DNA of 64,000 nt from Chiloscyllium plagiosum (Eukaryota), in contig NC_057719.1 in assembly GCF_004010195.1 (NCBI RefSeq), positions 8,517,604 to 8,581,603 of the forward strand. Reading direction: 5' to 3'. A program made the position numbers and the translations under genes. Each line of letters starts with the position of its first letter. The stretch's first letter is position 1. Positions 2,190 through 57,200 of this stretch are shown here, piece by piece. Below the pieces are notes generated by a model. The model did not search any database and had not been told where the DNA came from. It worked only from the letters and a program-made list of their open reading frames with translations.

Positions 2190-3951
2190 CTGTAAGGAAG
2201 GGATGGGGGATATACAAACAAATGAGCATATACATGCCCATCTATGGAAAAAAAACATAACTCTAACACTGACATTTCACAAACCCTAAACTGCAACTTC
2301 TTCATCATGCAGTCCATAGAGAGAGCAAGAGAGAGAGAGAAAGATAAATATTCTTTTTTAAAAAAAAACTTTTAACAGCTTTTCCCGAAAAAAATAAATA
2401 ATCATTAAAATCGTTCCAACTGCTCCCTCTACGTGAAACCACTTCAAACCGTGTGCACTGTAACTCTTCAACTTTGTTTTCCCACAATCTCCATGTGCTC
2501 CTTTAGCTGAAAATATTTCACTGGGTGCCAATGAATCCTGAGCATATCTTTCTCCTTTCTCGCCATTCTGGCAGGAATCAGCGACTAGGTGGAATTGGGG
2601 AATGTGGACAAAAGGCCCAAGTAAAATACACATGAAAAAGAATGTAAAAACAGCCATCCCATATGGAAGCAAACTTGAAGTTTGACTGGGAGAAAGGGAA
2701 CAAAGTCCACTGTGACTGGCCAGGAAAGGAGGTCTTATGATGTTGGTATCGCCTGGTAGATGTCTTGGATTCGAAAGGGTAAAACCAGAATTCCAGGGTA
2801 ATTATGGCGCAGTGTTAGCACCCCTACCTCTGAGCTTGGAGGTCCCAGTTTGAGTCCACTTGCTCCAGAGTTGTGTTGTATCATTCCTGAACTGGTTGCA
2901 TCATAGGAAGTTACTATGCAGTTACGGCAAGTAATGAGGAAAAGTAACTGAATCCAAGAGCAGGGAGCTTATGCTTCAGGACATTGATAGGACCACGTCT
3001 GGAGTACTGTGTATAGTATTGATCACCAGACTTACAGTAGTACTTTAAAGCATTGGAAGAAGTTCAGAGAAGGGTGGCATGGTGGCTCAGTGGTTCAGTG
3101 GTTAGCACTGCTGCCTCACAGCACCAGGGCCCCAGGTTCAATTCCTGCCTTGGGCAACTGTCTGTGTTGAGTTTGCACATTCTCCCCGTGTCTGCATGGG
3201 CTCCCTTTGGGTGCTCCAGTTTCCTCCCACAGTCCAAAGATGTGCAGGTCAGGTGAATTGGTGATGCTAAATTGCCTGTAGCGCTAGGTGAATTAGTCAG
3301 AGGGAAATGGGTCTGGGTGGGTTACTCTTCGGAGGGTCGGTTTGGACTGGTTGGGCTGAAGGGCCTGTTTCCGCACTATAGGGAATCTAAGGTTTACGAG
3401 ACTAATTCCTGGAATGAGCAGATTGCCTTATTAGGAAACATGAGAAAGAGATGGCCTTTTTCAATCCTTAGGGGACTTTTCTGATTGGATGCTGAAAGGA
3501 TGTTTTCTGTTGTGGGAGAATCTAGAACTAGGAGTCACAGTTTAAAAGAGAAGGGGGTGCACATTTATAACAGAGATGGGGAACCATTTTTTCTCTCAGA
3601 GGGTTGTGAGTATTTGGAATTCCCTTCCTCAAAAAGGCAGTGGATACAGAAGCTTTAGATATTTTTAAGGCAGAGGGAGATTATTGGGAATAGACTGAGG
3701 GGTGAACTTCTTGACGTTTATAAAATCATGAGGGGCGTGGATAGGGTGAATAGTCAAGGTCTTTTCCTCAGGGTAGGAGTCCAAAACCACAGGGCATAGG
3801 TTTAAGGTGAGAGGGGAAAGATTTTAATGGGACCTAAGGGGCAACTTTTTCAGGCACAGGGTAGTGCGTGTATAGAACAAGCTGTCAGAAGAAGTGGCGA
3901 TGGTGGGTACAGCTACAACATTTAAAAGGCATCTGGATGGGTATATGAATA

Positions 3952-4151
3952 TGGGAAAGTGAGGACTGCGGATATTGGAGATCAGAGTCGAGAGAGAGGT
4001 GCTGGAAAAGCACAGCAAGTCAGGCAGTATCCGAGGAGCAGGAGAATCAACGGTTCAGGATGATGAAGGGCTTATGCCTGAAACGTTGATTCTCCTGCTC
4101 CTCGGATGGTGCCTGAACTGCTGTGCTTTTCCAGCACCACACTCTTGACTC
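3952..4151. mobile_element. Palindromic Penelope-derived element inserted in a CR1 3' end; degenerate hammerhead
   Basis: Same arms as the other copies; 14-bp direct repeat tgggtatatgaata (3938-3951, 4152-4165). Confidence 0.8.
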
Positions 4152-4250
4152 TGGGTATATGAATAGAAAGGGCCAAATGCTGACAGATGGGACTAGATTA
4201 ATTTAGGACAGCATGGATCAGAGGGCCTGTGCTACTGTAAGACTCTACCA

Positions 4251-4570
4251 TGGGCGGCACGGTGGCACAGTGGTTAGCACTGCTGCCTCACAGCGCCAGA
4301 AACCTGGGTTCAATTCCCGCCTGGGGCAACTGTCTGTGTGGAGTTTGTACATTCTCCCCGCGTCTGCGTGGGTTTCCTCCGGGTGCTCCGGTTTCCTCCC
4401 ACAATCCAAAAATGTGCAGGTTAGGTGAATTGGCCATGCTAAATTGTCCTTAGTGTTAGGTGAAAGGGTAAATGTAGGGGAATGGGTCTGGGTGGGTTGC
4501 TCTTCGGAGGGTCGATGCAGACGTGTTGGGCCAAAGGGCCTGTTTCCACACTGTAAGTAATCTAATCATA
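4251..4570 (+). mobile_element. HE1-type tRNA-derived V-SINE, full length
   Basis: A box ggtggcacagtggttagc, B box gggttcaattcc, V-domain gtgtggagtttg...ggtttcctccgggtgctccggtttcctccc, and a 3' tail shared with the CR1/HER1 LINE. Confidence 0.92.
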
Positions 4571-8799: not shown

Positions 8800-10148
8800 T
8801 GTCCAGATTACAGAGGAGGAAGTGCTGGATGTCTTGAAATGGTTAAAGGTGGATAAATCCCCAGGACCTGATCAGGTGTACCCAAGAACTCTGTGGGAAG
8901 CTAGAGAAGTGATTGCTGGGCCTCTTGCTGAGATACTTGTATCATCGATAGTCACAGGTGAAGTGCCGGAAGACTGGAGGTTGGCAAACGTGGTGCCACA
9001 GTTTAAGAAGGGTGGTAAAGACAAGCCAGGAAACTATAGATCAGTGAGCCTGACATCGGTGGTGGGCAAGTTGTTGGAGGGAATCCTGAGGGAAAGGAGG
9101 TACATGTATCTGGAAAGGCAAGGACTGATTCGGGATAGTCAACATGGCTTTGTGCGTGGGAAATCATGTCTCACAAACTTGATTGAGTTTTTTGAAGAAG
9201 TAACAAAGAAGATTGATGAGGGCAGAGCAGTAGATGTGATCTATATGGACTTCAGTAAGGCGTTCACAAGGTTCCCCATGGGAGACTGATTAGCAAGGTT
9301 AGATCTCACGGAATACAGGGAGAACTAGCCATTTGGATAAAGAACTGGCTCAANNNNNNNNNNNNNNNNNNNNNNNNNNNNNNNNNNNNNNNNNNNNNNN
9401 NNNNNNNNNNNNNNNNNNNNNNNNNNNNNNNNNNNNNNNNNNNNNNNNNNNNNNNNNNNNNNNNNNNNNNNNNNNNNNNNNNNNNNNNNNNNNNNNNNNN
9501 NNNNNNNNNNNNNNNNNNNNNNNNNNNNNNNNNNNNNNNNNNNNNNNNNNNNNNNNNNNNNNNNNNNNNNNNNNNNNNNNNNNNNNNNNNNNNNNNNNNN
9601 NNNNNNNNNNNNNNNNNNNNNNNNNNNNNNNNNNNNNNNNNNNNNNNNNNNNNNNNNNNNNNNNNNNNNNNNNNNNNNNNNNNNNNNNNNNNNNNNNNNN
9701 NNNNNNNNNNNNNNNNNNNNNNNNNNNNNNNNNNNNNNNNNNNNNNCGTCGGAGGCTGAGGGGTGACCTTATAGAGGTTTACAAAATTATGAGGGGCATG
9801 GATAGGATAAATAGACAAAGTCTTTTCCATAGGTTCGGGGAGTCCAGAACTAGAGGGCATAGGTTTAGGGTGAGAGGGGAAAGATATAAAAGAGACCTAG
9901 GGGGCAGCTTTTTCATGCAGAGGGTGGTACGTGCATGGAATGAGCTGCCAGAGAAAGTGGTGGAGGCTAGTACAATTGCAACATTTAAGAGGCATTTAGA
10001 CGTGTATATGAATAGGAAGGGTTTGGAGGGATATGGGCCGGATGCTGGCAGGTGGGATTAGGTTGGGTTGGGATATCTGGTCGGCATAGATGGGTTGGAC
10101 CAAAGGGTCTGTTTCCATGCTGTACATCTCTATGACTCTATGACTCTA
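8800..10148 (+). mobile_element. 5'-truncated CR1/HER1-type LINE (RT region plus 3' tail), contains assembly gap
   Basis: KSPGPD...GNYRSVSLTSVVGK...QHGFVRGKSCLTNLIEFF...YMDFSKAF; ends in a (ctctatga)n tail. Confidence 0.93.
9354..9746. other. Assembly gap (393 N)
   Basis: Run of N. Confidence 1.
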
Positions 10149-11548: not shown

Positions 11549-12759
11549 GTCTTGCAGGGGACTGTGGTTGGAGGCTGGAGATCATTGTATGAGATTTCCA
11601 GGACCATGTCCAACTAGAATTTGCAATAACAAGTCTTCAGCCTTCCCTGCTCACCATGGTGAGATATCTCAATGTGGAATTGATTGTTTGCAAATAAAAT
11701 GAGGAAACAGGCTGGAGCTCAATGAGAAGACAGTGAGGGATGACTTCGGCAGAGGTCTATGAGATTATGAAGAGGTTGATGTAAAAACAGTTACTCCCCA
11801 TGAATATAAGATAATCACGAATAAACCCAATGGAGAGTTCAGGAGAAATGTCTTTAACTACAGGGGAGTGACAATGTAACAGGGAGCATAGTTCTGGTCA
11901 AGAGGAACTTCAACCAACATACTGATGGGACCAAGTGAAGCAACAGCAATTGGAACATACATCATGCCAGGTGTTGTTGGGCCGAATGGCCTGTTGCTGT
12001 TCTATAATTGTTATCTGTTACTTTTTTGTGATCATCCAGCTATCACTCAGCTCATTCACTCGATCATCCCTCCCCCTCTCCCACTTTCCTAAACATCAAG
12101 ACTCAAGCCTTCCTGACTTGGAACGATATCAGCGTTCCTTCAGTGTCGCTGGGTCAGAGTTCTGGGCCTCCCAAGTTAACAGCACTGTCAGTGAAACCTA
12201 CAGCAGCAGTTCCACCTCCTTCCTGATGCTAATTGTCAAACCAATGATACCCACATTTGGTGAACTAATAAAGAAACAGCTGTACATTGTGTGGGAGTAT
12301 TAACAGTGAGAATTCTGGCTGATTTCATCTTTATACGTCGAGGGAAGACAGCTGGGTGGATATTCTGGCTGACCCCTGGCAAACCCTGATGAGTCATGTA
12401 TTAATTTCAGCATGCCAAGTATGAAGACATACTGATTTTATTTTTTTTATTCACTCACAGGATGTGAACCTTTCTGGCTAGGCCAGCATTTACTGCCCCA
12501 TTCTGAAATGCCCAGAGGGCAGTAAAAGGTCAACCACATTGCTATGAGTTCGGTAGGCCAGACCAGGTGAAGATGACAAGTTTCCCTCCCAAAAGTGAAC
12601 CAGTGTTTGAATCAAACAGCATGTTCCGACAAAAAAAAACAGACGGTGCTGGAGAAGCTCAGCAGGTCTGGCAGCATGTGTGGAGACAGAATCAAAGTTA
12701 ATGCTTGTGAGTCTCATATGACTCTTTGGAATATATCTCTCAAGCTGTTCAGAATAGGT

Positions 12760-13701: not shown

Positions 13702-13903
13702 GTTGAGAGTGTGGTGCCAGAAAAGTACAGCAGGTCAGGCAGCATCCGATGAGCAGGAAAATCGACTCATCTCATTCCTGATGAAGGGCTCATGCCCGAA
13801 ACGTTGATTCTCCTGTTCCTCGGATACTGCCTGACTGGCTGTGCTTTTCCAGCACCACACTTTTCGACTCTGATCGACAGCATCTGCAGTGCTCACTTTC
13901 TCC
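13702..13903. mobile_element. Palindromic Penelope-derived element with intact plus-strand hammerhead core at ~13774-13809
   Basis: CUGAUGA (13778-13784)-A-GGGC(UCAU)GCCC-GAAAC-GUU-GAUU between inverted arms. Confidence 0.78.
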
Positions 13904-13944
13904 TCCATTTTGGCCCTTCTGGTCAATGTCAGTGTTTACATTCT

Positions 13945-14265: not shown

Positions 14266-16334
14266 GGTAAAGAGCTTTGTCTCACCTTCCTCCAATGCAC
14301 AGCACCAACATATCCTAATTTAAGTCTTCTTATTTAAGGGGAGCCATGTGACATGATGGCTTAATGGTTAGCACTGCTGCCTCACAGCGCCAGGGACCTC
14401 GGTTCGATTCCAGCCTCAGGTGACTGTCTGTGTGGAGTTTGCACATTCTCCCCGTGTCTGTTTGGGTTTCCTCTGGGTGCTTCAGTTTCCTCCCACAGTC
14501 TAAAAATGTCCAAATTAGGTGAATTGGCAATTCTAAGTTGCCCGTAGTGTTCATGGGTGTGCAGGTTACATGCATTAGTCAGAGGTAAATGTAGAGTAAT
14601 AGGATAGGGGTATGGGGCTGAAGGGTTACTCTTCGGAGGGTCAGTATGGACTTGTTGGGCCAAATGGCCTGCTTCCACACCGTAGGGATTCTATGAAATA
14701 TGATCCTTCTGCTCTTTTCTCCCTCATGTATCCACCTCGCTTTCCTTAATACAACTGTGCTCTTTGCCCCAGCGACATTGTGAGCTACAATTTTTCCACA
14801 TTCTTTCCACGCTTTGAATAAAGATTATCTCTTACACTCCATGTTAGATTAACTGACTTGTATCATACCTTCATTACCCACAGATGGATTTCTGCAGGGC
14901 CTCTGGGGATGGGCTCTGAAGTTGGAAGACTGGCAAACGTACGTGGAAAGATGTTGCGCAGTGTGCTTGATGGCATCCCGATGCCATGCCATCTTGCCAA
15001 AGGTCCATTGCTAAAGCAAGCCACTTTAGTGGCCAAATACAGGCCTCTGCCCAACGTCCTCCACCTCAACCCACCTCCCCACCCACCCCTCTTGCCCACA
15101 CCTTGACTGACTCCTGTGCCATATGGGAAATTTGGCAATGGCAAACTGTGGGTGAATTAGTGGGTGATTCACTCTGGGCACACTTTGGTTCACCACCCTG
15201 GGTCTACCTGCCTGCAGCCCTCTCACCCAGGCCGTGGTACCCCAGCATCACTCCCTCCCCAAGACCACTAACCACCATCAGTCCACCCCCTCAGCCCCCA
15301 AACTCACTCCCATGCTCTCACTAAACCTGATTATGAAGGTGCTCATCTATCAATGTCTTTTCCTCTTTGAAGTGCATCCCCAGTGGCTGACCATCACCAG
15401 GGGATGGCACTACCGGAGCTGGTGCCCTTGAATTCAGCTGGCAGCTTCTGGGAGGTGTTCGCTTTATAATAGGCTGAGAGACCTGACTTCATTCCTCACA
15501 GCTCCTTCAGCTTCCTCTCCCTCAACAAGCGGCAACAATTCTCTACTTCTTCAATGGTAAACCCTTCAGGAAATGCGAAATGTCCTCTTTTTGAGGCTTG
15601 TTCAATCTTTCATGATAGTTTTAGCTTTGCCTTTCCATAATCTTTGCAGAAAATACTTCTGTTTGCTCCTCCAGCAGTCCCTGCATGTCCTTTATGGGCT
15701 CTTTGTAAGAGATTTCATGCTGTGATTGGCCCATGTCCCAATGACTTCAATAGAGTGTAGAAAGAAAGATCAGCAACATGAACCACTAACTCCTAACTCT
15801 AACTCTGTTCAACTGCAATGGAGTAAATTGAAGAGAAACTCTTTCCAATGACAACATGATTTGTAACTATATGACCAAGATTTAAGGTAATGAACAAAGA
15901 ATTTTGAGGCAAAATGAGGACCATTCTTATTTTCTAACAAGGTATGAATTGTTGTGATCTGGGATGTACTTTCTGTGAGCATGCCCAGAAACATATTCTT
16001 GTAATAATTTTACAAAAGGCTATTAAGGGCTTTTGTGCCTCAGTGGTAGCATTCCTGCCTCAAGGTCAGAAGGTCTGGATTCAGGTCTCCTTCTGTCTCA
16101 GAGGTGTATGTTCAATGTTCAATGTTCAATGAACAGGTCAATTCAGATTAGGAATTGGTGAGGTGAGATGGAAATGAAAGGCGGGTATTAGAAATCTTGA
16201 AAATACAAACAGAAAGTTCTGGAGAAACTCAGCAGATCTGGCCTCATCTGTGGAGCATAGAGAAAATTTAATGTTTAGAGTCCAAGGTGACTTCTTCAGA
16301 ACAATATGTCTTCTGCTTCATTGTTCCTTTAGTG

Positions 16335-20230: not shown

Positions 20231-21341
20231 GTCCCCCCTGCCTATCAGTATAAGCTCACTGCACAAGTAGCATTTCTGAAGTATCTGTTCTACGATTGTA
20301 CAAATACGTGCTCTGAAACCAAATTTCAAAACACCACTGTGCTTTGAGTCAGCATCTGAAATGGTCCCTGCTGAACAGGAGAATCTAGGTGGTAGTAATG
20401 TAGAGGTTTAATCTTCATAGCAGAGCAGCAGGAGCGCTCTGAATAAAAGGCAGTAGACTGGGATTTCAGACACGCAAAACGAAACTGGAGTACATGGATG
20501 CAGATGTTATGCTGCAGTTATAAAACCCTGGTTGGACCCCACCTGGATTACTGAGTTGGGCACCACAGATTTGGGCATCACCACCTTAGGAAGATACATT
20601 GGTCGATGAAATACAACACGGGTTCACAACAATGATACCTGGACTTCAGGAGTTCAGTTACGAGCAACGATTACACAAACTAAGCCTGTTTTCTCTAAAC
20701 ATTTAAAGGGTGAAAGGGTGATCAGATGGAAAACTTCAAAATATTAAAATGTCAGATAAAGCTAAACTGTTTCCACTGGTTGAAGTATCTAGGACTAGGG
20801 GGAATGATCTGGGTATTAGGCTCAGACTGTTCAGGGGAGATGCTAGGATGCACATCCACACACAAAGGGTGGCAGAGGTCTGGAACTCTCTTCCACAAGT
20901 GGCAGTGGATGCTGGATCAGTTGTTGTTTTGAAATCTGAGATAGATATATTTTTGCTAAGGAAAAATACTAAGGCATATGGGCCAAAGGCAGGTATACTG
21001 AGTTAGGCCACAGGTTAGCCAGCAAGTTATTGAATGGTGGAACAGGCCTGAAGGGGCTGAATGACCTATTTTTGTTCCTATGTTCCCACACCACCTGAAA
21101 TTTTAATTTCAGATTTGATGCAGAATTACATGGAGTGTGCATTGTAGAAACAGGCCGCTTAGTCCAAATGATCCGTGCTGGTGTCCATGCTCTGTGTACG
21201 CCTCCTCCCATCTCATCCAGATCTAACCCGAACCATCTGATTCCTTATCTGATTTCCCTTTAATGCTGTTCACCTCAACAACACAGGTGAAGCTGTGGGT
21301 TCCATAGCCTAACCACTCCTACTGGGCTATGAGTGAAAATT

Positions 21342-21557
21342 GTTGAAACTTTATTGCTGGAACAGCACAGCAGGTCAGGCAGCATCCAGGGAACAGGAGA
21401 TTCGACGTTTCGGGCACAGGCCCTTCTTCAGGAATGAAGAAGGGCCTGTGCCCGAAACGTCGAATCTCCTGTTCCCTGGATGCTGCCTGACCTGCTGTGC
21501 TGTTCCAGCAATAAAGTTTCAACTTTGATCTCCAGCATCTGCAGACCTCACTTTCTC
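21342..21557. mobile_element. Palindromic Penelope-derived element, young copy, with hammerhead core
   Basis: Perfect 89-bp inverted repeat (21342-21430 / 21435-21523) with a 4-nt loop and a one-sided ~34-nt tail. Flanked by the 17-bp direct repeat ctatgagtgaaaattgt (21327-21343, 21558-21574). Confidence 0.85.
21400..21435 (-). ncRNA. Minimal type I hammerhead ribozyme motif
   Basis: AUUC-CUGAAGA-A-GGGC(CUGU)GCCC-GAAAC-GUC-GAAU: conserved core, 4-bp stem II, 4-bp stem I, palindromic ACGU stem III. Predicted cut between 21404 and 21403. Confidence 0.75.
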
Positions 21558-23110: not shown

Positions 23111-24581
23111 CTCTGCCTGTCCTAACACCTTTAATGACTTATGTTCACATACTCCCAGATGTCTCTGTTCCTGTATGCCCTATATTTGACACTGTCTGTT
23201 CATGTTCTTTGTACAAAAATGTACTACTTCACACTTATACACAGTGAACATCATCCTCGTCTGAATCTGCACTCAACCTCCCCAAACCTCCTGGTCAATA
23301 GAATTGTACCATTCAGACAACATTGCCGTAACAAGCAATCTTTGAGATGGTATATTATCGTTGCTGAATGTGGAACGAATCCTTCTCTACACCAGGTAAG
23401 CAGGGGGAGAAAGGTGAGGCAGATTAATCTCTCATGATCAATAACACTTCGAAACCAGTCACATCATCGTGCTGTGCATTTAGTAAGAAATGATGAACAA
23501 CAAATCACTTAGCCATCCCTTCTCTTTGTCAAGGTAGTTCCAGTTTAATTACTGAAGCAGTTATTTACGACCCCAAATGCAGTGGACAAACAGAAAGTTA
23601 TTACTTTGGGAAGGCTTCTTATATACATTGTAAATCAGGGCATTATTAATAAGCTAGTGATCTTCCAAACTCAATGGCCTGTTCAAAGGAAATGGATTAA
23701 GTCTCTCTCCACATTCAGACGTTGTTTAGGAGTGCTGGAGATTTACGACATCCCATTTGTGTAGAAGCCAATGCAGAGAAAACACAGCAAAGCAAAAGGC
23801 CTTAATTGCCACACTTTTCTTTCTGGAAGGTTCTGTGAAGTTGTTAAAAAAAGCTGTCATTGGAGCGACATGGAGTTGGCCAGTTTCAAAGAAATGTTTT
23901 CCAACCTGAAGCTTAGGACGGAGGGTGCAGGTGATTAACATGATGGCTAGCCTCCACGCTCTAGACTCTCAGCTGGCTCATTGCTACAATCTCTTCCTAT
24001 ACTAAGCCGCGCAGCATTCGGAAGTCAGAGTCATCCAACCAGACCATAATCCCAAACTAAAATTAGTCCCACCTGCCTGCTCCTGGCCCATGTCCCTCCA
24101 AAGCTTTTTCACACAGAGGGTGGTACGGGTATGGAAGAGAAAGTGGTACAATTGCAACATTTAAGAGGCATTTGGATGGGTATATGAATAGGAAGGGTTT
24201 AGAGGGATATGGCAGGTGGGACTAGATTGGGTTGGGATATCTGGTCGGCATGGACGGGTTGGACCGAAGGGGCTGTTTCCATGCTGTACATCTCTATGAC
24301 TCGATGACTCTATTCATGTAATTATCCAAATGTTTTTTAAATGTGCCCATATCCATCACTTCCTCAGGAAGTTCATTCCAAAAGCCAACCGCCCTCTTTA
24401 TAAAAAATCAAACCCTCAAGGCTTTTTTCAAATCTCTCTCCTGTCACGGTAAATATGTGCCGCCCCACCCCAGTCTTGAAACCCCAATCCTAGGGAAAAG
24501 CCACTAATCGCATCTACGCACTCCCCCACCTCTCCCCCATGATTTTATAAACCTCTATAAGGTCACCTCTCATCGTCCAGT

Positions 24582-24766
24582 GACAAAGTGAGGACTCCAG
24601 GTGCTGGAGATCAGAGTCAAAACGTGTGCCGCTGGAAAAGCACAACGAGTCAGGTAGCATCCGAGGAACAGGAGAACTCATGAAGGGCTTATGCCCGAAA
24701 CGTCGATTCTCCTGTTCCTCAGATGCTGCCTGAACTGCTGTGCTTTTCCAGCGCCACACTTTTCGA
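24582..24766. mobile_element. Palindromic Penelope-derived element nested in a minus-strand CR1; hammerhead core mutated (CUCAUGA)
   Basis: Shared arm sequence gctggaaaagcac...ggcagcatccgagg and its inverse. Confidence 0.75.
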
Positions 24767-25407
24767 TGCTCAACCTCCTACGCTCCAGTGAAAAAAGTCC
24801 CAGCCTTTCTTTGGAACTCAAACCTTCCATACCCGGCAACATCCTGGTAAATCTCTTCCAAACCCCCTCCTGCTGAATAGTATCCTTCCTGTGTCGAAAC
24901 ACAAAGGCGAGGGATGGAGAAGAAAAAGAGAAGGCACAATTTCAAACTATTTTGAATGCGAACTGGAAACACAGGAATTCATAACCCGGCTGAATCGTAA
25001 CTTAGGGATTCACAGGCAATTGCCGGCCTTTACTGACACTCACCATGTCTTTGCATTGGAGGGGTTACATTTTGTCGGAAGTGAAAGATGAGGGCCAATT
25101 TTGTTTCCCATTTTATTCATGCATGGCATGTGTGTATCACTGGAAAAGCCAGCATTTGTCACTTGCCCTTAATTGTCCTTGAACTGGGTGGCATGCCAGG
25201 TTGCCTCAGAGGGTGGTTGGAATTCAAAAGGCATGTTGTCAGCATGGAGTTGGGCAGGCCTTCTCTCGTCTGCCTGTGGTGTGGCTGCATCCTTTCTTGT
25301 ATGCGGTTTGGCTGGCATCCTGGTTGGCATTTGTCCCTTGACCGGTGTGTCAAGGATGGGTTGGCTGGTTCTTCATCCACTGCTGTTTGCAGGAGACTAT
25401 TCTCCAC

Positions 25408-27062: not shown

Positions 27063-27653
27063 TTTTATTGGTTCATATCCTTTCAAGGAATCTTGGAGCA
27101 CAGAAGGTGACTCTTTGGTCCATCATTCTGTGCCCATTCTTTGGAAGAGCTATGGGATCAGACTCATTGGCCTGCCTCTCTCTCTCTCTCTCAATCACCG
27201 CAGACATTATCCCCTCAATAATTCATCTCATCCTGTTTCAGGAACTACATTCAAATCTGCTCCACCACCTTCTCAGGCAATGCATTCCGAACCACAACAA
27301 CTCGCTGCTTTAAGAATATTTCTCCCTGTCTCCCTCAATAGATCTTTCACCAATTAGCTTAAATCTATCTCTTCTGGTTAATGACCCTCCTTCCAGGAGA
27401 AATAGTGTCTCCTTATTCTCTCCAGCGAGTGATTACAGTCATTGCTCTGTACCTGTGAGGGTTCTGCTCCTGAGAATCTCTGTGAATGATGAAGTACATA
27501 TCAGTGTGGTGATTGTTTAAAAATAGGTTAAAAATCTTCGATATGCAACTTTTCCTGCAGACGCTGAATTTTTTTTGGTTGCTATTTATTTGTTGTCATG
27601 GATAGGCAAATTTGCGTGATTTCATAAATGCTGAGGATTTACTAAATCTACTA

Positions 27654-27798
27654 GGAGAAAGTGAGGACTGCAGATGCTGGAGACCAGAGCTGAAATATGT
27701 GTTGCTGGAAAAGCGCAGCAGGTCAGGCAGCATCCAAGGAGCAGCACTCTGAAAGCTCGTGCTTCCTATCAAACCTGTTGGACTATAACCTGGTGTTG
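27654..27798. mobile_element. Chimeric fragment joining arms of the two Penelope-derived families
   Basis: The left part matches the 3952/24582 family. The right part (ggagcagcactctgaaagct...gttggactataacctggtg) matches the 54040 family. Confidence 0.65.
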
Positions 27799-29864
27799 TG
27801 TGATTTTTAACTTTGTCCGCTATTCAATGAGATTGTGGCCCCAACTCCATATACCAGCTTTTGGCTCATTTCCCTTAATACCTTTGCTTAACAAAAATTA
27901 ATCAGTCTCAGATTTAAAATTGAAAACTGATCCGGTGTCCACTGGCATTTGTAGAGGAGAGTTCCAAACCTCTCCCACCCTTTGTGTGCGGAAGTGCTTC
28001 CTAACATCTCTCCTGAACGGTCTGGCCTGAATTCTCAGACCATGCCCCCTAATTCAAGAATCCCCAACTGATTGAAATAGTTTGAGACAAAAAAAACTGC
28101 AGATGCAGATGAATTGAAATAATTTGTCTTTATCTACACTGTCTCTTCCTGTTAATATCTGTGAGAAAATTTCACTCCTGTATTGCTCATTCTGAATGTT
28201 AACATGATTTCCTGTCCTGCATATCTTTGTGACTGTGAGAGGAAACTGGGGCACCCGAAGGAAACCCACGCAGACACGGGGAGTATGCGCAACACCAAAC
28301 AGACAGTCCCCCAAGGCTGGAATCGAACCCAGCTTCCTGGTCCTGTGAGACAGCAGTATTAACTCTGCATTACAAACCAGCTATCCAGCCAAATGAGCTA
28401 ACTAGCTCTGGCATAATCCCAGTGAATCTGCACTGGACCCCTTCGATGGTCAAACTATTGGTCCTATGATTCAGCCCTGAGAACGGAAGCCTATGTGTCT
28501 GACCGAAACTCCATACAAGTGAAGACCATCTCATTTCACTACCCTTCGCGATGGAGCTTCTAAGACAACACAAAGCCATACTCAAATAAAACTCCGCACA
28601 AAATTCTCTCCATATTGTAAAAGATTCCCCAAATCACATTTATTCTCAATGTGTGGTCAACACTGCTGCTCTGACAGCTGACTGGGTTCCTAGGTTACGT
28701 TTATAAACTCATAGGGATTAGGAACAGATGTAGGTCATTGAATCTGACTTGCCATTTGATAGGATCATGGTGGATCTGATTGAAGCCTTAACTCCATTGT
28801 CTTGCCTGTATACCCCTCCCCATAGTCCTTACAATCCCTTCCCTTTTGACCAAAATTCGACTTAACTCAGCCTTTTTCTATCCAATCTCTGCTGTTCACC
28901 ATGAAAGAGAATCCCAAAGTCTAACAACGCTTTGGGAGAGGAAATTTCTCCTTCTTTTCAGTGGTGACTACTTGGGGTTGATAGAAGGGGTGATGGTGCT
29001 GATGATTAGCATCAGAATGGGGTCATAGGGATGCCCTCAGGCCAGCAGACCCCAACCTCAAACTGAGGAGGAGGAGAGTGCTCAGGTCAGGAAGCAGTCG
29101 GCTGTCCAGATTGGAATGGGGCAAAACAAAACCACAGCAGATGGTGCAACATAAACTCAATGAATTCAACTTTGAATATAAGGGTCATCTCAGTAATTAG
29201 AATTAGAATCTCTACAGAGTAGAAACAGGCTCTTCGGCCCAACAAGTCCACACTGACCCTCTGAAGTGTAACCCACCCAGATCCATTCCCCTCTTACTTG
29301 ACATTTCCCTCTGACTAATGCAGCCAACTACATAATCCCTGAACACTATGGGCAATTTAGCATGGCCAATTCACCTGACCTGCACATCTTTGGACTGTGG
29401 GAGAAAACCAGAGCACCTGGAGGAAACCCATGCAGACACAGGGAGAATGTGCAAACTCCACACAGACAGTCACTCAAGGCTGGAATCAAACCTGGGTCCT
29501 TGACACTGTGAGGCAGCAGTGCTAACCATTGAGCCACCATGTCACCCTATACTGTTGTTGTAAAGACCCATCTGATGCCTTTTGGAAATCTGTTGCCTTT
29601 ACCTGATCACGCCCACACATGACTGCAGACCCAGTACAACTCTTGATTTTCCACTGAAATAGCTGAGGAAGGTAACCAGGTGAAAGAGATGGACAATGAA
29701 TGCAGTCTTTGTCAGTGACACTCAGACCCTACGAAAGCCTGTTTAAAAATTATGACTACTTTAATCTTTATTGCCTACTGCCTCTTCTCATTTAATGCAA
29801 TGAGGGAATTTCAATTTACAACTTATGTTATCTGTGAGTTATATAAACTATATTAAAGTCAGAA

Positions 29865-40858: not shown

Positions 40859-40956
40859 AATCATCTTTCACAGACCGCACCTGGAGTATTGTGCACAGTT
40901 TAGGTCACCTTATTTGAGGAATGATTTAGTGGCATTGGATGCAGTTCAGACAAGGT

Positions 40957-41510: not shown

Positions 41511-43584
41511 AGGTTCACTAGATTGATCCCAGAGATGAGGGATTTGTCGTATGAAGAGAGATTGAACAGTTTAGGCCTGAACCCCCTGGAATCTAGAAGA
41601 ATGAGGGGAAATCAAATTGAGGTATTCAAGATGATGATAGATGTGGATAAAATAGACGTGGAGCGGATGCTTCCTCTTGTGGAGCATTCAAGGATGAGAG
41701 GTCATATTCTTAGGATAAGAGTTAGCAAATGAAAGCAGAGTTGAGGAGAGACTACTTCTCCTAAAGGGTTGTGAATCTGTGGAATTCGCTATCCCAAAGT
41801 GCGGTGGATGTTGGGATAATGAATAAATTTAAGGACGAGTTAGACAGATTTTTAATTGGTAATGGGTTGAAGGGTTATGGGGAGAAGGCAGGAAAATGAG
41901 GGTGAGAAGCATTTCAGTCATGATTGAATGGGTCGAATGACCTAATTCTGCTCCGATAACTTATGAACTTATGAACTTCACAATGCTCCAAAAGATTTAA
42001 CAGCCAATGAAATGCTCCGATTGTCAAAATGTCGGAAATAGAACAGCCAACTGGCATGTAGCACACCCAGACAAATGACAACACAATAATGACTAGATCT
42101 GTTATATGTGCACTGTTAGCTGGAAAATAAATGATGGCTAGCTAGCAGGGCGAGTATATCTGCTCTTTGATATAGAATGTGGAATTGTTGGGTGGCTCGG
42201 TGGCTCAGTGGTTAGCATTTCTGCATCACAGCACCGGGGAGCAGGTCTGATTCCAGCCTCAGCTGACTGACTGTGTGGAGTTTGCGCATTCTTCCCGTGT
42301 CTGCGTGGGTTTCCTCTGGGTGTTTCGGTTTCCTCCCACAGACCAAAGATATGCAGGTTAGGTGAATTGGCCATGCTAAATTGGCCATCATGTTCAGGGA
42401 TGTGTCAGTTAGCTGCATTAGTTTAGGGTAAATGTAGAGGAGTAGGGGAATGGGTCTGGGTGGGTTACTGTTCGGAGATCGGTATGGACTTGCTGGGCTG
42501 AAAGGCCTGTTTCTCCACTGTAGGGATTCTATGATTCTATGTTCACCTCCACCTCAGAGACGAGGCCTCAATTTAACAAAGGTAAACTGATTGCTCAGAC
42601 TTTTGAGTATAGGACATGTTAAGGTTGTACAGGACTTTGGTGAGGCCTCTGAAAGTCATAGAGATGTACAGCATGGAAACAGACCCTTCTGTCCAACCCG
42701 TCCATGCCAACCAGACATCCCAACCCAATCTAGTCCCACCTGCCAGCACCTGGCCCATATCCCTCCAAACCCGTACCACCCTCTGTGTGAAAAGGTTGCC
42801 CCGTAGGTCTCTTTCATATCTTTTCCCTCTCACCCTAAACCTATGCCCTCTAGTTCTGGACTCCCCGACCCCAGGGAAAAGACTTTGCCTATTCACCCTT
42901 TCTATGCCCCTCACAATTTTGTAAACCTCTATAAGGTCACCCCTCAGCCTCCGACACTCCAAGGAAAACAGTATGGAAGGTTAGAGTTACAGCTTTGAGG
43001 CTGGGTAGGTTGGGACCTATTTCACTGGCATGTAGGAGGTTGAGGGGTGACCGAACAGAAGCTTATAAAATATTGAGGATTATAGATAGGGCTAATGGTA
43101 GTTGTTTTTCCCCTGGAATTGGGGAATTTCAAGACTAGGGGGTACATTTTTAAAGAGTGATTTAAAAAAGACACAAGTGGCAAAGTTTTTACACAGAGGA
43201 TGGTTCGCATATGGAACTTCCTAAGGAATTGGCGGATGTGGGTATAATTACAATGTTTAAAAGACATTTGGATAGGTACATGAATAGAAATGGTTTGGAG
43301 GGATATGTGCCAGGAGCAGGCAGGTGGGACTTGTTTAGGTTGGGATTATGGTCGATATGGACTGGTTGGACCGAAGGGTCTGCATCCCTGCTGTATGACT
43401 CTATGACTCCATGACAGTCCTGTCACCTGAAATCTTTGGCCCCAGATTATCGACCATTTTTAAATTTGTTCACAAGATGAAAATCTCCGCCCCCCCCCCC
43501 CCCCCCCTCCATTGCCACTGGGTCAAAATTCTGGAACTCCCTTCCGAACTGCACCCTGAGTCTATTTAAACCTCAAGGACCACC

Positions 43585-46121: not shown

Positions 46122-46321
46122 TGGGAAACAAAAAGTGCTGAAGATCACAGCGGGTCAGGCAGCATCCATGGAGAGAGAGCAAGCTGACGTTTTAAGTATA
46201 GATGACTCTGATGAAGAGTTAGCTTGCTCTCTCTCTCTCTCCACACAGATGCTGCCCGACTCGCTGTAATCGCTAGCATTTGTTGTTTTCAGTACAGATT
46301 CCAGCATCTGCAGTAATTTGC
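46122..46321. mobile_element. Older degenerate palindromic Penelope-derived element
   Basis: Inverted arms (cagcgggtcaggcagcatc / gatgctgcccgactcgctg), central ctgatgaagag and ccagcatctgcagta tail. Related half-copies lie at ~12630-12730, 16200-16302, 54580-54633, 55465-55618 and 55993-56074. Confidence 0.6.
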
Positions 46322-48166
46322 CCCCACATTCTCGAAGCTCCCCACTGGAGTCATGGCTGGTCAATGACTAGACTCATAATGTAAAATACAAGCATTAAGT
46401 TGTTAGGACAGATTGATCCCTCACTCATTCATCTGTTGCCTCAGTTGGGAACAGCATGAGGTAGACTCTTATGGAGAGGATCCACAATCCCTGGGCAGCA
46501 TTTCAGTCAGCTGGCTGCCTCCAATGGGCCTCAGTGTTCCCAGGTTAAGGACAGACCAAACCAGGAAGGTTTCTGTTGCTGTCAGCTTGAGTTAAGGGCT
46601 GACAAACATAGAACCTAGAACAGTCCACAGGAACAGGCCCTTCGGCCCACCATGTCCATGCCAACCATGATAACATTCTAAATTAATCCTATTTGCCCGC
46701 ACATGGTCCACAGTCCTCTCTTTCCTGCCTGTTCATGCTCGTTAAACATTGCTATAGTATTTGCTTCTATCCCCTTCCCTAGCAGTGTATTCCAAGCACC
46801 TACTACTCTCTCTGTAAAATACTGTCTCTCCCACAGTCCAAAGTTGTGTAGGTTCAGTGGATTGGGTGAATTGCCCAGTTGTGTCCCTGGATATGCAAGC
46901 CAGATAGATTAGCCATGGCAAACACGGGGTTATGGAGATAAGGTGGGGGTCTGGCTCTTCAGAGGGTTGGTGCAGATCTGATGGGCCACCTGACTCCTTT
47001 TTGCACTGTAGGGATTCTATGATTTAATGATTTCCTTAAACATTCTCCCTCCTACCTTAAACCTATGACCTGTAGTATTTTACATTTCCAATCGGGAAAA
47101 AGACTCTGACTATCCACCCTATCCATGCCTCTCATAATTTTATACACTTCTATCAGGTCACCCCTCAGCCTCTGAAATTCCAGCAAAAACATTCCAAGTT
47201 TGACCAACCTCTCCTCATAGCTAATATACTCCAATCCAGGCAACATCCTGGTAAACCAGAAAGGTTTCTGTAGATGTTGCCCTGAATTCATCAGTTTGCA
47301 GGTGTTGCATTGAAAAGTGACACCAACTAACCGATGATAAATTTTGGCTGCGCATTTTTAAGAAGTGTGCATGCTCAATAATAAAGCCAATTTCAATAAT
47401 TAATGAAAAACTACTACTTTATTTAATGGTTTTCTTTCTCTTCACTAATAGAATTTCTCTCCTTTTCAATTTTTCAGGGTCTGTTCAGTTTTGATCACTC
47501 TTTATTTCAATTTAATTCCCAGAGTTAGCTGCTGCTATGCTTGCTCCTGGGTGTGAGCAAAATGCAGCCGTGAGTATTATATCCATGTACCAAATCCACA
47601 CACCAGAAAAAAGAGCCTGGGATGAATTCAGAAGGTTTCATTGGTCTAGCAGCACGACCAGCTCTGTTTCTCAATTCTTACGACTCGGTAAGCTTCTTCC
47701 ACTGTTTCTTCGCAAGGACTTCATAATGGACTTTCCACGTTTTCCAATTTGAGATTTTTGCCATCGTGAGCATTCCCATTTGATCATCTCTATTTAGTCA
47801 CTTCCTCTCTCACTTCTCACTACACCTTGAGGATAATATCCACTCAGAGAACCATACAGCACAGAAACAGGCCATTTGGTCCAACCAGTCCACGTTGACC
47901 ATAATCCCAAACTAAACTAGTCCCACCTTCCTGTGCTTGGCCCATATCCTATGTACTTATTAATGTACTTATCCAAATGTAACTGTACCCCCATCCATCA
48001 CTTCCTCTGGAAGTTCATTCCACACATGAACCATTTCTGTGCAAAACGGCCCGTCATGTCTTTTAAATCTTTCTCCCCATCCTAAAAATATGTACCCCAG
48101 TCTTTAAATCCCCCACCTTATGGAAAAGACACCGGCCATCACTTTATCTATACCCCTCTTGATGAA

Positions 48167-48393
48167 GTAAAAACAATGACTGCAGATGCTGGAAACCAGA
48201 TTCTGGATTAGTGGTGCTGGAAGAGCACAGCAATTCAGGCAGCATCCGAGGACAGGCAAAATTGATGTTTCGGGCAAAAGCCCTTCATCAGTTTTTATTC
48301 CTGATGAAGGGCTTTTGCCCGAAACGTCGATTTTGCCTGTCCTCGGATGCTGCCTGAATTGCTGTGCTCTTCCAGCACCACTAATCCAGAATC
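48167..48393. mobile_element. Palindromic Penelope-derived element with hammerhead core
   Basis: 93-bp arms (48199-48291 / 48301-48393, 2 mismatches) and a 9-nt spacer; 14-bp direct repeat cccctcttgatgaa (48153-48166, 48394-48407). Confidence 0.85.
48297..48332 (+). ncRNA. Minimal type I hammerhead ribozyme motif
   Basis: AUUC-CUGAUGA-A-GGGC(UUUU)GCCC-GAAAC-GUC-GAUU. Confidence 0.7.
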
Positions 48394-50485
48394 CCCCTCT
48401 TGATGAAAACTAGAAGGCATAGGTTTAAGATGAGAGGGGAAAGATTTAAAAAGGACCTAAAGGGTAACCTTTTTCACACAGAGGGTGGTGCCTGTATGAA
48501 ACAAGCTGCCAGAGGCTGATACAATTACAACATTTAAAAGGATGGGAATATGCATAGGAAGAGTTTGGGGGGGATTTGGGCCGGGTGCTGGCAAATGGGA
48601 TTAGGTAAGGATATCCTGTCGGCATGGAGGAGTTGGATGGAAGGGTCTGTTTCCATGCTGTACATCTCTGTGACTCTAAGTGCTTGAGGCTTTCCTGAGA
48701 TTGTCAGAGAGACCACTCATCAGCAGTTGTTCCTTTTTGTCTTTTCAAGATAGCAAGGGACAAATGCAGAACACTCCAGTTTATCTGATAATCTCTGAAA
48801 AGGAAATGGTGTTTGTTATAGCTGTGCTGTGAGAGACTTGGTGGGCATGGCTCCCATATTAACAATGCGGTTGACCCTGAGCTGCTTTCTGAATGGCCTA
48901 TAACATGCCAATCACAGCTCAAAGGGTAACTAAGGATAGGCAATGAACGCCTACATTCCCTTCAACAAATATAAAACAAATCTCTGAACAGCAACTAATT
49001 GCCCCCTTCTACAGCAGCCCTTCCCAAAGTGGGTACCAGAAACCCAAGTCAGGTTTTGAGCTAAAGATTTAGGGTCATGACCTCCAAGGAAAGGGCCCCT
49101 CTCCCACCCCAAGACCCAACCCCTAAGAAACCTTTGCCTCCCGTTGCCACATCTCACTCAGGGGAGTGATCAAACCTCGAGTCACGGCTCTGGTGGGAAA
49201 AAACAGTTAGGGAAACATTAATCTCAAATTAAACTGAATGTTCAATGACAAAGATAAAGGAAGAGTGGATTTATAAAGGAAAGAGAGAACTTGTGCAGTA
49301 AGATTGGGGAAATATAAAGTTTGTTTCTAGCTGTCACTGCATTATATTGGAGTCAGGGTTTTGTTGATAAAGTGAACAGTGTATTCACATGCAGCTTCAG
49401 CCTGGCTGCTGCTATCAAACGGCTTGGATTACAAATGTCACTCAATCCGAGAAGATTAGCTCCCTGTGCTTGTTCAAAGAGAACCTTTCAGTAACAGCCT
49501 GCATTATACCAGCTGTCCAATTGGAAATTAAATCTGTATCACCGCATCAACCTTGTGGGCAATTGTTTTCTTATAATCTCCTGACCCTGGATATACACAC
49601 AGCATGAATTCCCTTGCCCTCCCCCGACATACAAACTTACTTTTATTGACTTTTTCCTATTGATTGTTTGGCAAGACTAGCATTTATTGCTCATCCTTTG
49701 GTACTAAGTGGCTTGCTTGGCCATTTCACAGGGCAGTTAAGAGTCAACCACAATGCTGTGGGTCTGGAGTCACATGTACTCCAGACCAGGTAAGGATGGC
49801 ACATCCCCATGCCTAAAGGACACGAATGAACCACATGGACGTCTATGATAATTGACAATGGTCATCTGCGAACGTTTTAATTCAAACTTTCTACTGGATT
49901 CAAATTTCACCATATACCACAGTGGGATTTAAGCCCAGAACATTAACCTCAGGTTAACCGGACTACTAGCGCAGTGATGTTATCGCTATGTCATCACTTC
50001 CCCAGGTCACCATGGTCATAGAATCATGCAGTCAAAGAGATGGACATCATGGAAACAGACCCTTTGGTCCATCTCATCCATGCTGACCAAATATCCGAAA
50101 ATTAATCTAGTCCCATTTGCCAGCATTTGGCCCATATCCCTCTAAACCCTTCCTATTCATATACCCATCCAGATGTCTTTTAAATGTTGTAACTGTACCA
50201 GCCTCCACCACTTCCTCTGGCAGCTCATTCTATACACACACCACCCTCTGTGTGAAAACTTGTCCCTTAAGTCCCTTTTACATCTTTCCCCTCTCACGTT
50301 AGACCTATGTCCTCTAGTTTTGGACTCCCTTACCCCAGGGAAAAGCGCTAAAAGTTATTGTTTAATTTCAGCTTCATTAATTGAATTTAACTTTTACCAG
50401 CTGGCATTGCATGTAGTAAAATCATGACTGATCGGATTGTGACCTTTACCCTTATCTCCTGTCTGTCCCACAAAACCAGCACGGT

Positions 50486-50792
50486 GGGCGGCATGGTGGC
50501 ACAGTGGTTAGCACTGCTGCCTCACAGTACCAGAGACCTGGGTTCAATTCCTGCCTCAAGCGACTGACTGTGTGGAGTTTGCACATTCTCCCCGTGTCTG
50601 CGTGGGTTTCCTGCGGGTGCTCCGGCTTCCTCCCAGAGTCCAAAGATGTGCAGGGTAGGTGAATTGGCCATGCTAAATTGCCCGTAGTGTTAGGTGTAGG
50701 GGAATGGGTCTGGGTGGGTTGCGCTTCGGCAGGTCGTTGTGGACTTATTGGGCCGAAGGGCCTGTATCCACACTGTAAGTAATCCAATCTAA
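50486..50792 (+). mobile_element. HE1-type V-SINE, full length
   Basis: Same head, V-domain and tail structure. Confidence 0.92.
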
Positions 50793-53700: not shown

Positions 53701-54039
53701 AAGTTATGCCTCAAGTTATCCCTTACATACGATTGCAGACCCAAATCAACATGGCTGCCTCTTATCCCCCCCACTATGAACAACTGGGGATGTGCAGTAA
53801 GTGCTCGCCTAACCACACATCCCATGAATAAAACAAAATGCTGATTGATCTTGTTGACCATTTGTGAGACCATATATAAAGTGCTTTCTTCATATTACAC
53901 CCAATAAGTAACCACCTTTGCTGCCATAGATCGTCTGCAATATTTATGTTGACAGTGGACATCAATTGTTATCTTCAGATTTTCAATCAATCATTACTTT
54001 CATGAATGTCAACAGGATCCTGGGACTTTGTGAATATTG

Positions 54040-54256
54040 TCAGAAGTCACACGACACTGGGTTATAGTCCAACAGGCTTATTTGAAATCACAAGCTTTCA
54101 GAACACTGCTCCTTCATCAGGTGGACCGCTTTTGTCACCTGACGAAGGGGCAGTGTTCCAAAAGCTTGTGATTTTGAATAAATCTGCTGGACTATAACCG
54201 GGTGTGGTGTGACTTGTGACCTTATCCACCCCAGTCCAACACCAGCACCTCCACAT
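54040..54256. mobile_element. Second-family palindromic Penelope-derived element with back-to-back hammerhead motifs
   Basis: Imperfect inverted arms. Minus strand 54089-54123 reads CAC-CUGAUGA-A-GGAGC(AGU)GUUCU-GAAAG-CUU-GUG. The plus-strand copy has GAAA mutated to AAAA. Confidence 0.75.
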
Positions 54257-57200
54257 TGTGAATTTTGACAAGTTATCAGCATTGCAATAGACAATACATG
54301 CTTAAAGTGCCTGGCTTTTCAATAGCCACACTGAGAAAATCTAGATTTATACAAAACGCTGGTCTCGCCAGTAATGGGCAGACCCTCTGGAGATATGGGC
54401 AGGGTTGGGAGTTGCTGGTTGAGAGGGGCAACAGGATGAGATCTCAGATCAGAGGCTCCCCACAAGTTCCATTCCCATCGGTGTTATGGGAGGAGGGCAG
54501 CTCTCAATTTGGTAACCTCCACTTCTGATTGAATTCAAGACCACTCTTGGACTAGTGGTGTCGCTCAGTGCTGACATTCTGCAGCGAGAAAAACAGAACT
54601 GATGGTTCAAGTCCAGTGACCTTTCATCAGAACCCAGTAACGCCGCAGAATCTGCTGTCATTCTCCCTTCCCCTGTGTAGTGTGCTGTTCTGTGAAGTTC
54701 TATAAAGACCTCTATCCTGCGATTCATGGACTGGCTCTTTGCCTGACCATCAAACCACCCTCGTTACTCCTTCCCCTTCCATGACAGATAATCATCCAGA
54801 TTTTGCATTCACATGCCAGTTAGATTTTATAACAATTTCTTAAAAAAAAAGCAGTGTGGAGTTTGTTGTGCTTTCCAGTGCTGTCACTGACTGGCCCTTG
54901 CTGTGTTGACTATATTTTGATTTATTTTACAGTTGTAATCTCAACAATTGGGGCCTCAAATTTAATATTAAACCGCAGCAAGGCAATGTTATTATCTATA
55001 TTTATATATATCCTAATCTTTCAACAGCAAGCCATTTGAAGGATTATTGTGTAACGGATGTCGTATTCACTTAGCACTAACTGAGCAAACAATATCAAGT
55101 CAGGAGGGAACGATGTGATCTGACCTCAATGATCAGATTTAAGATGGGAATTCTAATCTGTTCAATGTCTAATCACTCCTGTTCTCAGAATCCTCCTATG
55201 AATCATCACTGTTAGATAGTGTTTCAGAAGGTTCTGTTAATGTCACTTTAATTTGACTTTGCGGTCAATATGGTGACCAGAATTGATTTCGTGTACATTA
55301 TGAAACAGCAGACCTGATTCTACATCATACTTGCCTCCCTCCACCTTCCTTTCCCGTTGGTGTTACTGGGGAATTTGTTAATATCCACCTATTGTTTTAA
55401 TCTTAGAGCAGTGGCATAGCTCAGTGCTAAAGTTCTTTTAGCTTAAGGCAGTGTCTGTAGTCAGTCAAGCAGAGTTGGCATTTCAAGGCGAGTGACTCTT
55501 CATCGGAACTCAGTAGTTCTGCTTCTCTCTCCACAGATGCTGCCTGCCTTGCTGAGTTTCTCCAGCACTTCCTGCTTTTGTTTCAGATCTCTGGAATCCA
55601 CAGTACTTTGGTTTATTCTTGAGGTTGGACTTCAGGCTGGACAATTGTGGCTTCAGGTTTTACTGACTTCGATGATTCACCGAGGGAGTGCAACAGTGTC
55701 AGTGCTGGCGTTTGGACCACACGTTAAAGCACAGCCCAATTTACCCTGCGATGCAGACCCAAGTGGATCTATGTGAATGACTTGGATTAAGGAACTGCCT
55801 GGATTGTACCCAAATTTACTGACAAAGATAGATTGGAGAACAGATTGTGTGGGGGACACAAAACATTCTGCAAAGAGATATAGACAGGTGAAGTGACTGG
55901 ACAGATGAGAGGTTGGATGTCAGAACAAGGATGATACCTGGTTTTGGCAAGAACTTGCCTGAGAAATGCTTTCACATTTCGTGGCCATTTAAAGTTCTGA
56001 ACAAGAGGCACACTGGATTTCAAATGCTAACTCGGTTTCACTCTCCGTAGATACTGCCAGACCTGCTGAGTTTCATAGAATCCCTACAGCATGGAAACAG
56101 GCCATTCAGCCCATACTGACCCTCCAAACAATATCCCACCCAGACCCACCTATCCATGTAAACCTGCATTTCCCCATGGCTAACCCATTGAGTCTGCATA
56201 TCCTTGGACACTATGAACAATTAAGCATGGCCAATCAACCCAATCTGCTCACCTTTGGACTGTGGGAGGAAACTGGAGCATTCGGAGGAAACCCACGCAG
56301 GCATGGGGAGAACATGCAAACTCCACATAGACAATCGCCCGAGACTGGGATCAAACCCAGGTCCCTGGTGCTGTGAGGCAGCAGTGCTAACCATTGTGCC
56401 ACAGGAATTGCTGGAATCTTTCCACTAATTTTGCATTTATTCCTACTATCTGCTTTCTATCAATCCTCAAACCATGCTACAATTTACCCAGGCACTTTAT
56501 GCACTGCATACATATGCATCATGTTATTCATTTGTCAGACTCTTAACCATCTGTACAGTAACTTTCCTTCCCCCTTCCCAATACTTACCAAGCTTATAAA
56601 CAAGATTGCTAAAAGCAAGTAAAACAGAAAACACCACTCTATCTGGTGCTAATGTATGACTTTTAAAAAAAAATTAGATTACCTATAACATGGAAACAGC
56701 TCCTTCGGCCCAACAAGTCCACACTGACCCTCCAACCAGTAACCCTTCCAGAATCATTTTCCTTATCTTCCCCTGACCCGCACATCTTTTGGATTGTGGG
56801 AGGAAACCAGAGCACCCAGAGGAAACCCACACAGACACAGGGAGAATGTGCAAACTCCACACAGAACAGTCACCCAAGGCTGGAATCAAACCAAGTCCCT
56901 GGTGCAAGGAGGCAGCAGTGCTAACCATTGAGCCACTGAGCCACCGTGCCACCCCTTATACACAGGGTTTACTCACAGTATCCTGGATATTTGTCTCTAA
57001 CAGCCAGAGACCCCCAGTGTTGATCCAAAATGAATATCTTGAATGGATGACATGTGTCCCTCACTTTACTATCATCAGTCGACATTTCCGAACTGTTGCT
57101 ATGCAACAAAACACTGGCATTCATCGTTGAAGTATGCTTTTTTTAGAAGCTTCCTGGCACGTGGTAATGTAATCGTGTCCAGGAATCTTTTTTTTTACTA

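Follow-up and report, generated by a model that had tools for sequence, protein, structure and literature searches.

Introduction

Insertions of Penelope-like elements (PLEs) carry an inverted, 5'-truncated copy beside the 5' end and a tail of 30-40 bp that is often present at one end only (Craig et al. 2021, PMC8557442). In rotifer PLEs, pseudo-long terminal repeats (pLTRs) stand head-to-head between target-site duplications (TSDs) of 8-10 bp, and self-priming on an antisense template was proposed for the head-to-head junctions (Arkhipova et al. 2013, PMC3846280). Here we describe a set of ~200-bp hammerhead-bearing palindromes in a 64-kb stretch of the shark genome of Chiloscyllium plagiosum (contig NC_057719.1; this whole stretch is called the window below). 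They resemble insertions of endonuclease-bearing PLEs in their head-to-head inverted copy, one-end tail, variable TSD and hammerhead within the terminal repeat (PMC8557442, PMC3846280). They differ in that both copies are cut to the terminal module, which leaves a palindrome without an open reading frame (ORF), and in TSDs that are longer than those of rotifers (14-17 versus 8-10 bp; PMC3846280).

The minimal hammerheads of metazoan PLEs, which have an extra nucleotide after position 9 and a palindromic 15.2-16.2 and occur mostly on truncated copies (Cervera and de la Pena 2014, PMC4209133), are the type-I ribozymes met here in the terminal repeat, although stem II measures 4-5 bp in the window and 7-8 bp in Schistosoma; sharks are not mentioned in the available text of that paper. 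In vitro, a PLE protein, predicted to dimerize, nicked and extended both target strands, began reverse transcription at two internal sites bounding the tail without need of ribozyme cleavage, and accepted 5'-truncated templates (Frangieh et al. 2024, PMC11167929). Poseidon of Anolis carolinensis shares with the window elements two fixed 3' start points that bound the tail ~90-130 nt beyond the ribozyme, and may share with them AT-rich targets and the nicking and extension of both strands, but palindromic products are not described in the available text of that report (PMC11167929). Unlike in Poseidon, no start of an ORF continuing from the ribozyme was found in the window elements. Metazoan non-LTR retrozymes (LTR, long terminal repeat) are likewise small and non-coding, with a type-I hammerhead, TSDs of >4 bp and a suspected PLE partner (Cervera and de la Pena 2020, PMC7229834), whereas they are head-to-tail tandems with canonical hammerheads and circular RNAs, and the window elements are head-to-head with minimal ones (PMC7229834). 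No head-to-tail tandem was present among the nhmmer matches in the window, where every paired copy was inverted. The elements are neither retrozymes nor miniature inverted-repeat transposable elements (MITEs).

Literature searches, with repeat databases outside their scope, returned no description of such elements in sharks, and no publication linking PLEs to twin priming, as judged by title and abstract. The architecture has already been described for PLEs; what is new here is an empty site, an ORF-linked analogue family, a folding conflict and a nesting test of the palindrome centres. Our main conclusion, to which we give a probability of about 0.78, is that each palindrome represents one insertion by the reverse transcriptase/GIY-YIG protein of an endonuclease-bearing PLE, with the terminal pLTR module as the only template.

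Results

Hammerhead palindromes with a tail on one arm

The window contained seven palindromes (~200 bp), one chimera, one old atypical palindrome and four solo arms, the hammerhead families together occupying 2,069 bp (3.2%). An earlier note, made from the sequence alone, had reported six or more palindromes plus half-copies, and all seven that it named were present, with arm complementarities of 100% (21342), 98% (48167), 90% (3952), 85% (24582), 83% (13702 and 54040) and 78% (46122). The chimera at 27652-27820, the palindrome at 55446-55612 and the solo arms at 12626, 16202, 54578 and 55993 were added by arm-based profile searches (nhmmer) of the window. Three families were distinguishable, namely A (including the subfamily of 48167), B and C, with a short arm segment common to A and C. 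Elements are named by approximate start (21342 and 21344 are one element, as are 24580 and 24582, and 55446 and 55455), distances are given from C3 of the hammerhead core, and strand is given for solo arms.

3952..4151, family A palindrome in the 3' end of a long interspersed nuclear element (LINE); tail on left arm at ~3952-3982; left arm ends at +17 from C3; right arm begins at the core (4060)
12626..12733, minus, old family C solo arm, hammerhead decayed
13702..13903, family A palindrome; C3 at 13778 (plus); tail on right arm; left arm ends at +25; no TSD detected
16202..16302, minus, old family C solo arm
21344..21557, youngest palindrome of family A; complementarity of arms 100%; minus strand with the complete hammerhead, C3 at 21431; tail at ~21524-21557
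24580..24768, family A palindrome in a LINE fragment; tail on left arm, which ends at +30; degenerate 10-11-bp TSD at 24569-24578/24769-24778
27652..27820, chimera of a tailed family A arm (minus) and a family B arm (plus); 7-nt shared word at ~27738-27744; no TSD
46122..46325, palindrome of family C; right arm tailed and with an internal deletion in stem II; no TSD detected
48167..48393, A-related subfamily palindrome; arms 98% complementary; cores at 48291 (minus) and 48301 (plus); 9-nt spacer; tail at 48167-48198
54040..54252, family B palindrome; cores at 54120 (minus) and 54139 (plus); 12-nt spacer; tail on right arm
54578..54634, minus, short family C solo copy with hammerhead
55446..55612, old palindrome of family C, atypical in form; hammerhead (minus) on the short left arm; tailed right arm begins past the ribozyme
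55993..56084, plus, old family C solo arm, hammerhead decayed

Both arms were head-to-head in all seven regular palindromes and read outward from the centre in the order hammerhead, arm and then, on one side only, tail. The one-sidedness claimed earlier held throughout: the tail (~31-37 nt) was on exactly one arm in 7/7, an outcome with a probability of ~0.008 if arms were tailed independently at 50%.

Contigs from four sequencing runs were aligned to a 1.1-kb stretch around the youngest palindrome (20900-22000). In run X1, 47,774 contigs aligned, with depth concentrated on the element, although depth ratios were not used as copy number. Directly behind 21558-21560, 1,430 of these contigs (282+615+533) had loose flanks that were mutually unlike (agreement 0.33-0.34; 24 of about 1,537 loose-end rows listed). 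Since these flanks are unrelated, the tail end is a fixed boundary at many loci. The family is very large, and its copy number appears to be very high.

Target-site duplications and an empty site

Exact TSDs of 14, 17 and 14 bp, as the earlier note had given them, flanked three of the nine elements tested (3938-3951/4152-4165, 21327-21343/21558-21574 and 48153-48166/48394-48407), whereas the identical search on 400 random 210-bp intervals reached at most 11 bp; the edges are accurate to +/- 1-2 nt owing to microhomology with the element ends. Two more elements had degenerate repeats. At 54040 a possible TSD of 15 bp with 2 mismatches (54025-54039/54253-54267) was borderline, as 2/400 random intervals reached 14 and none 15, and at 24582, where the repeat is 10-11 bp, the two flanks of the element overlap by 11 bp on one uninterrupted LINE copy. 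The search of element flanks gave no TSD at the remaining four (13702, 46122, 27652 and 55455). Three of four TSDs were 71-73% AT and one 50%, compared with 56% for the window, and the loose contig flanks were AT-rich too.

An empty site for the youngest palindrome was found in run X6, which came from a different sample and study with the same organism label. Its record 20, a 394-nt contig, joins 21558-21771 (record 1-214, 0 differences) to 21147-21326 (record 215-394, 2 differences) without a gap, and thus lacks 21327-21557, which comprises the element (214 bp) together with one of the two 17-bp repeats. Because this contig holds a single copy, the repeat was made by the insertion. The insertion at 21344 is very recent and, if the organism labels are right, polymorphic. 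Contigs of run X13, from organism B, break off at 21324 and resume at 21558, a pattern compatible with an empty site; none bridges it, and they were not counted.

The hammerhead and its folding conflict

A strict descriptor of the minimal hammerhead matched four sites in the window (13778 and 48301 on plus, 21431 and 54120 on minus), compared with a mean of 0.03 and a maximum of 1 in 100 first-order shuffles. Rfam gave no hammerhead match; its 13 matches (12 microRNA families and one untranslated region family) all fell under the gathering score and were rejected as generic hairpins. Stem II was GGGC/GCCC with varying loops (UUAU, UCAU, CUGU and UUUU), as had been read before, except that 3952 carries GCCU on the 3' side; the reading of family B, GGAGC/GUUCU with AGCU in place of ACGU, was borne out. 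Inverted arms meeting at a hammerhead core, also claimed in the earlier note, were not the case in every copy. One arm often ends at +17 to +35, inside or past the ribozyme, and a core on both arms was present only in 48167 and 54040, each with 1-2 substitutions in one copy.

The first three pairs of stem I read C-G/U-A/U-A or U-U in family A, C-G/A-U/C-G in B and U-A/U-A/G-C in C, and U-A/G-C/U-A in a further PLE family described below (the L family). These differences between lineages are compensatory, a statement that is descriptive only; old family C copies are decayed, and in two copies of family A pair 3 is a U-U mismatch. Pairs were read anchored on the core, as the MAFFT alignment misregisters families B and C, and the copies B54139 and C16299 were left out as mis-anchored.

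Stem II had a pairing probability of 0.98-0.99 in three single-arm RNAs. In whole-palindrome RNA it was <=0.001 in 6/8 strands, those where the motif matched, so that the palindromic RNA is predicted to be unable to fold the hammerhead. Since stem II is abolished there, selection on the fold can only have acted on the single-arm source RNA. Selection on structure, as suggested earlier, is thus valid for the source elements and not for the palindromes themselves.

Variable centres and clustered 5' ends

Within one subfamily the arms meet at different points, with arm ends at +17/0 in 3952, +25/-11 in 13702 and +30/0 in 24582; in the two young copies, 21344 and 48167, they lie at 0/-3 and 0/-9. 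These boundaries are our own assignments (+/- 1-2 nt). Among the contigs, the best-supported 15 of 295 joints each occurred in 0-3 contigs per run, with differing fillers. The arms of the two young elements are identical over the core segment, yet the two elements are only 71% alike to each other. The varying centres, the lack of a dominant joint and the identity of the young arms fit a second arm that is made anew, on the same template, whenever an element inserts. Between amplification of the palindrome as a unit and its arising de novo, which the earlier note had set side by side, the differing centres and the lack of a dominant joint lean toward the latter. There was no sign of gene conversion between arms, as old family A copies were no more alike within elements (75-88%; 88, 82 and 84) than between them (75-90%).

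Measured from C3, the 5' ends formed two groups, one between about -11 and +1 and the other between about +17 and +35, with cleavage expected at +28. Nothing was shared beyond about 5-11 nt upstream of C3 among the ten window copies compared. The first group may mark the point where the template RNA begins, or else a stall, and so leaves room for a short source similar to a short interspersed nuclear element (SINE). In a poly(A) single-cell run, of which about 2% was read, 2,671 reads matched, 97% of which ran on into the unlike sequence of other copies, with no pile-up of starts or ends; this run was not usable as information on expression or cleavage.

An ORF-linked analogue family

Scanning metagenome contigs for the core motif gave nine loci (L004-L012) of another PLE family, and none of the matches belonged to the window's own families A, B and C. 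In L010 an ORF that encodes a GIY-YIG domain (PF01541, 25.2 bits, cut-off 22.6) is followed by the core at a distance of 678 bp, and L007 is likewise GIY-YIG-linked; three pieces of L004 had no Pfam match. The ends of copies in this family fall at +98 or between +160 and +174, and one locus, L009, is a palindrome with a single tail and no TSD. One PLE family thus contains both short palindromes and ORF-linked copies. ORF-linked copies and those starting at -3 to -5 are 96-98% identical, although two of the short ones end at contig ends. As a side observation, the tail in L004-L012 is about 62-76 nt, above the usual 30-40 bp, and the first nucleotide of several copies or contigs is 3-5 nt upstream of C3. 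Three core-pattern matches in viral contigs were rejected as chance, being GC-rich and without ribozyme context, and the arm pattern had no match there; three Algoriphagus matches in genome contigs were also rejected, as no likeness extended beyond about 26 nt by eye.

Discussion

A proposed origin by two-ended priming

The elements bear out the earlier view that, rather than MITEs, they are Penelope products in an extremely truncated form, with pLTRs in inverted orientation, mobilized through RNA: TSDs are long and variable, ends are asymmetric, the core is of PLE type and, in other contigs, the same core stands behind a GIY-YIG ORF. In the mechanism that we propose, the template would be a terminal module of ~130 nt comprising the minimal hammerhead, a ~60-nt arm and the 31-37-nt tail. 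The PLE protein would nick both target strands 10-17 nt apart, and reverse transcription would be primed from both 3' ends, the outer (tail) start site being used by one and the inner by the other. Both cDNAs would stop in or just 5' of the hammerhead, with microhomology or filler joining them at the centre before repair. Such priming predicts head-to-head arms, a single tail and a TSD as long as the stagger between the nicks. The palindrome would thus be built at insertion and be mostly a dead end, with the hammerhead conserved in the single-arm source RNA.

Several observations weigh against this account. The L family shares only the ~28-nt core with the window families, not the arm, and the window held no remnant of a PLE ORF (tblastn with four PLE ORF pieces, best E 0.17); a full-length source of families A-C in this genome is thus putative. 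Two of the seven regular palindromes (13702 and 46122) have no TSD and two only a degenerate one. The 5' ends cluster at the upstream edge of the ribozyme, which random truncation does not account for. The contig data are themselves constrained, as short-read contigs collapse palindromes, no listed contig bridges the centre of 21344, and the joints seen were 15 of 295. Finally, 13702 is nested as cDNA fold-back predicts, 46122 and 54040 are ambiguous, and later central deletions could also yield varied, non-nested centres.

Alternative sources and alternative second arms

One alternative is compatible with insertion by a PLE protein and changes only the source: a hammerhead-headed single arm of ~130 nt would be a non-autonomous, SINE-like element whose solo copies are transcribed and mobilized in trans, the palindromes still being made at insertion. 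It would account for the clustering of 5' ends at the ribozyme edge, and it agrees with the mere 5-11 nt or so shared upstream of C3 in the ten window copies and with the concentration of the 47,774 X1 contigs on the element. Internal initiation of reverse transcription makes the RNA 3' end irrelevant, and 5'-truncated templates are active in vitro (PMC11167929). Truncation at the edge is, however, also seen in the L family, where long elements exist and short and ORF-linked copies are 96-98% identical, and no promoter or tRNA head was found, in a tRNA search that covers whole tRNA genes only. We regard such a source as a serious possibility with the odds somewhat against it.

Less probable, and in our judgement unlikely, is a PLE origin in which the first cDNA folds back and primes its own copying into the second arm, or in which that arm is made from an antisense template, with later cruciform or microhomology deletions producing the non-nested centres. 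Self-priming of this kind was proposed for head-to-head junctions (PMC3846280), the 11-nt loop of 13702 sits on the tailed arm as required, and central deletions do occur here, as in the internal deletion of 46122 near its centre and in 27652, which resembles a microhomology deletion. If the tail-primed cDNA simply folded back, the tailed arm should always be the longer one at the centre. Only 13702 conforms to this; 46122 and 54040 are ambiguous, and the prediction fails for 3952, 21344, 24582, 48167 and L009 (+60 versus -3), in all of which the tailed arm is the shorter. In these 4/7 window palindromes, including the two youngest (98-100% complementary), central sequence is present only on the untailed arm, which a tail-primed cDNA cannot supply; 48167 counts as such a case if its 9-nt spacer is given to the right arm. 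Two RNA-templated priming events, each starting from its own nick, are favoured over fold-back because in these four palindromes neither arm is nested in the other.

Replication of the whole palindrome as a unit, as an RNA hairpin or a retrozyme-like circle with its hammerhead under selection, would fit the finding that elements of three families are alike in size (~200-230 bp) and design, and read-through of the host intron would transcribe copies. We consider it very improbable, as stem II is lost in the hairpin, each of the seven palindromes has a different centre and no joint is dominant, neither arm carries a complete core in several copies, and there are no head-to-tail repeats. MITEs of a DNA transposon with a chance hammerhead-like motif, to which the short, non-coding, inverted and high-copy design might point, can be practically dismissed given the asymmetric ends with a 31-37-nt unpaired tail on one side in 7/7, TSDs that vary in length (14, 17, 14, ~15 and ~11) where a fixed short one would be expected, the solo arms, the variable inner truncation and the PLE-type core.

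Genomic setting and other observations

Near the start of the window lies a host exon:

115..1182, minus, neurexin 3' coding exon; stop-free frame; match to Neurexin-1 over the 100 C-terminal residues, E 1.4e-43

The elements lie 5' of this exon, presumably in one or more long introns of the gene. Within the exon, which is the last coding one, a long in-frame Pro/Ser/Thr-rich stretch precedes the transmembrane segment. The rest of the window is repeat-rich with many LINE fragments, which we take to be of CR1 type. The chimera at 27652-27820 is likelier to be a microhomology deletion between two neighbouring insertions than a cross-family template switch, because the LINE end that hosts its B arm has no convincing remainder on the left flank. 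The 48167 element lies at or near a junction of antisense and sense LINE fragments (48060-48520). Two overlapping inverted LINE fragments at 42862-43125 (106-nt arms, 71% complementary, 52 nt apart) were rejected as a member of the system, being LINE sequence without hammerhead relation. A perfect 25-bp inverted repeat with a 43-nt spacer (32657-32749) has no relation to the hammerhead families and may be what is left of a small DNA transposon, or else a conserved hairpin. An assembly gap of 393 nt (9354-9746) lies within a LINE fragment.

Significance

How PLEs make inverted and tailed insertions has been stated to be undefined (PMC8557442), and the later steps of insertion to be unvalidated (PMC11167929). 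The surprise of the present elements is limited because the architecture itself is known. We suggest, tentatively and at less than even odds, that the palindromes are the footprint of two-ended priming by a dimeric PLE protein and that the ~130-nt unit is a self-sufficient cis-element, possibly promoterless and SINE-like with its 5' boundary set by the ribozyme fold rather than by cleavage, and one that remains mobile in a vertebrate, where its copy number is very high. The elements also matter for annotation, where they would wrongly be labelled MITEs or microRNA hairpins. The very many ORF-free and partly still polymorphic minimal insertions of a vertebrate genome are a natural data set on PLE insertion, in which TSD length reports the nick stagger, the side of the tail points to priming order, and nesting at the centre discriminates two-ended priming from fold-back.

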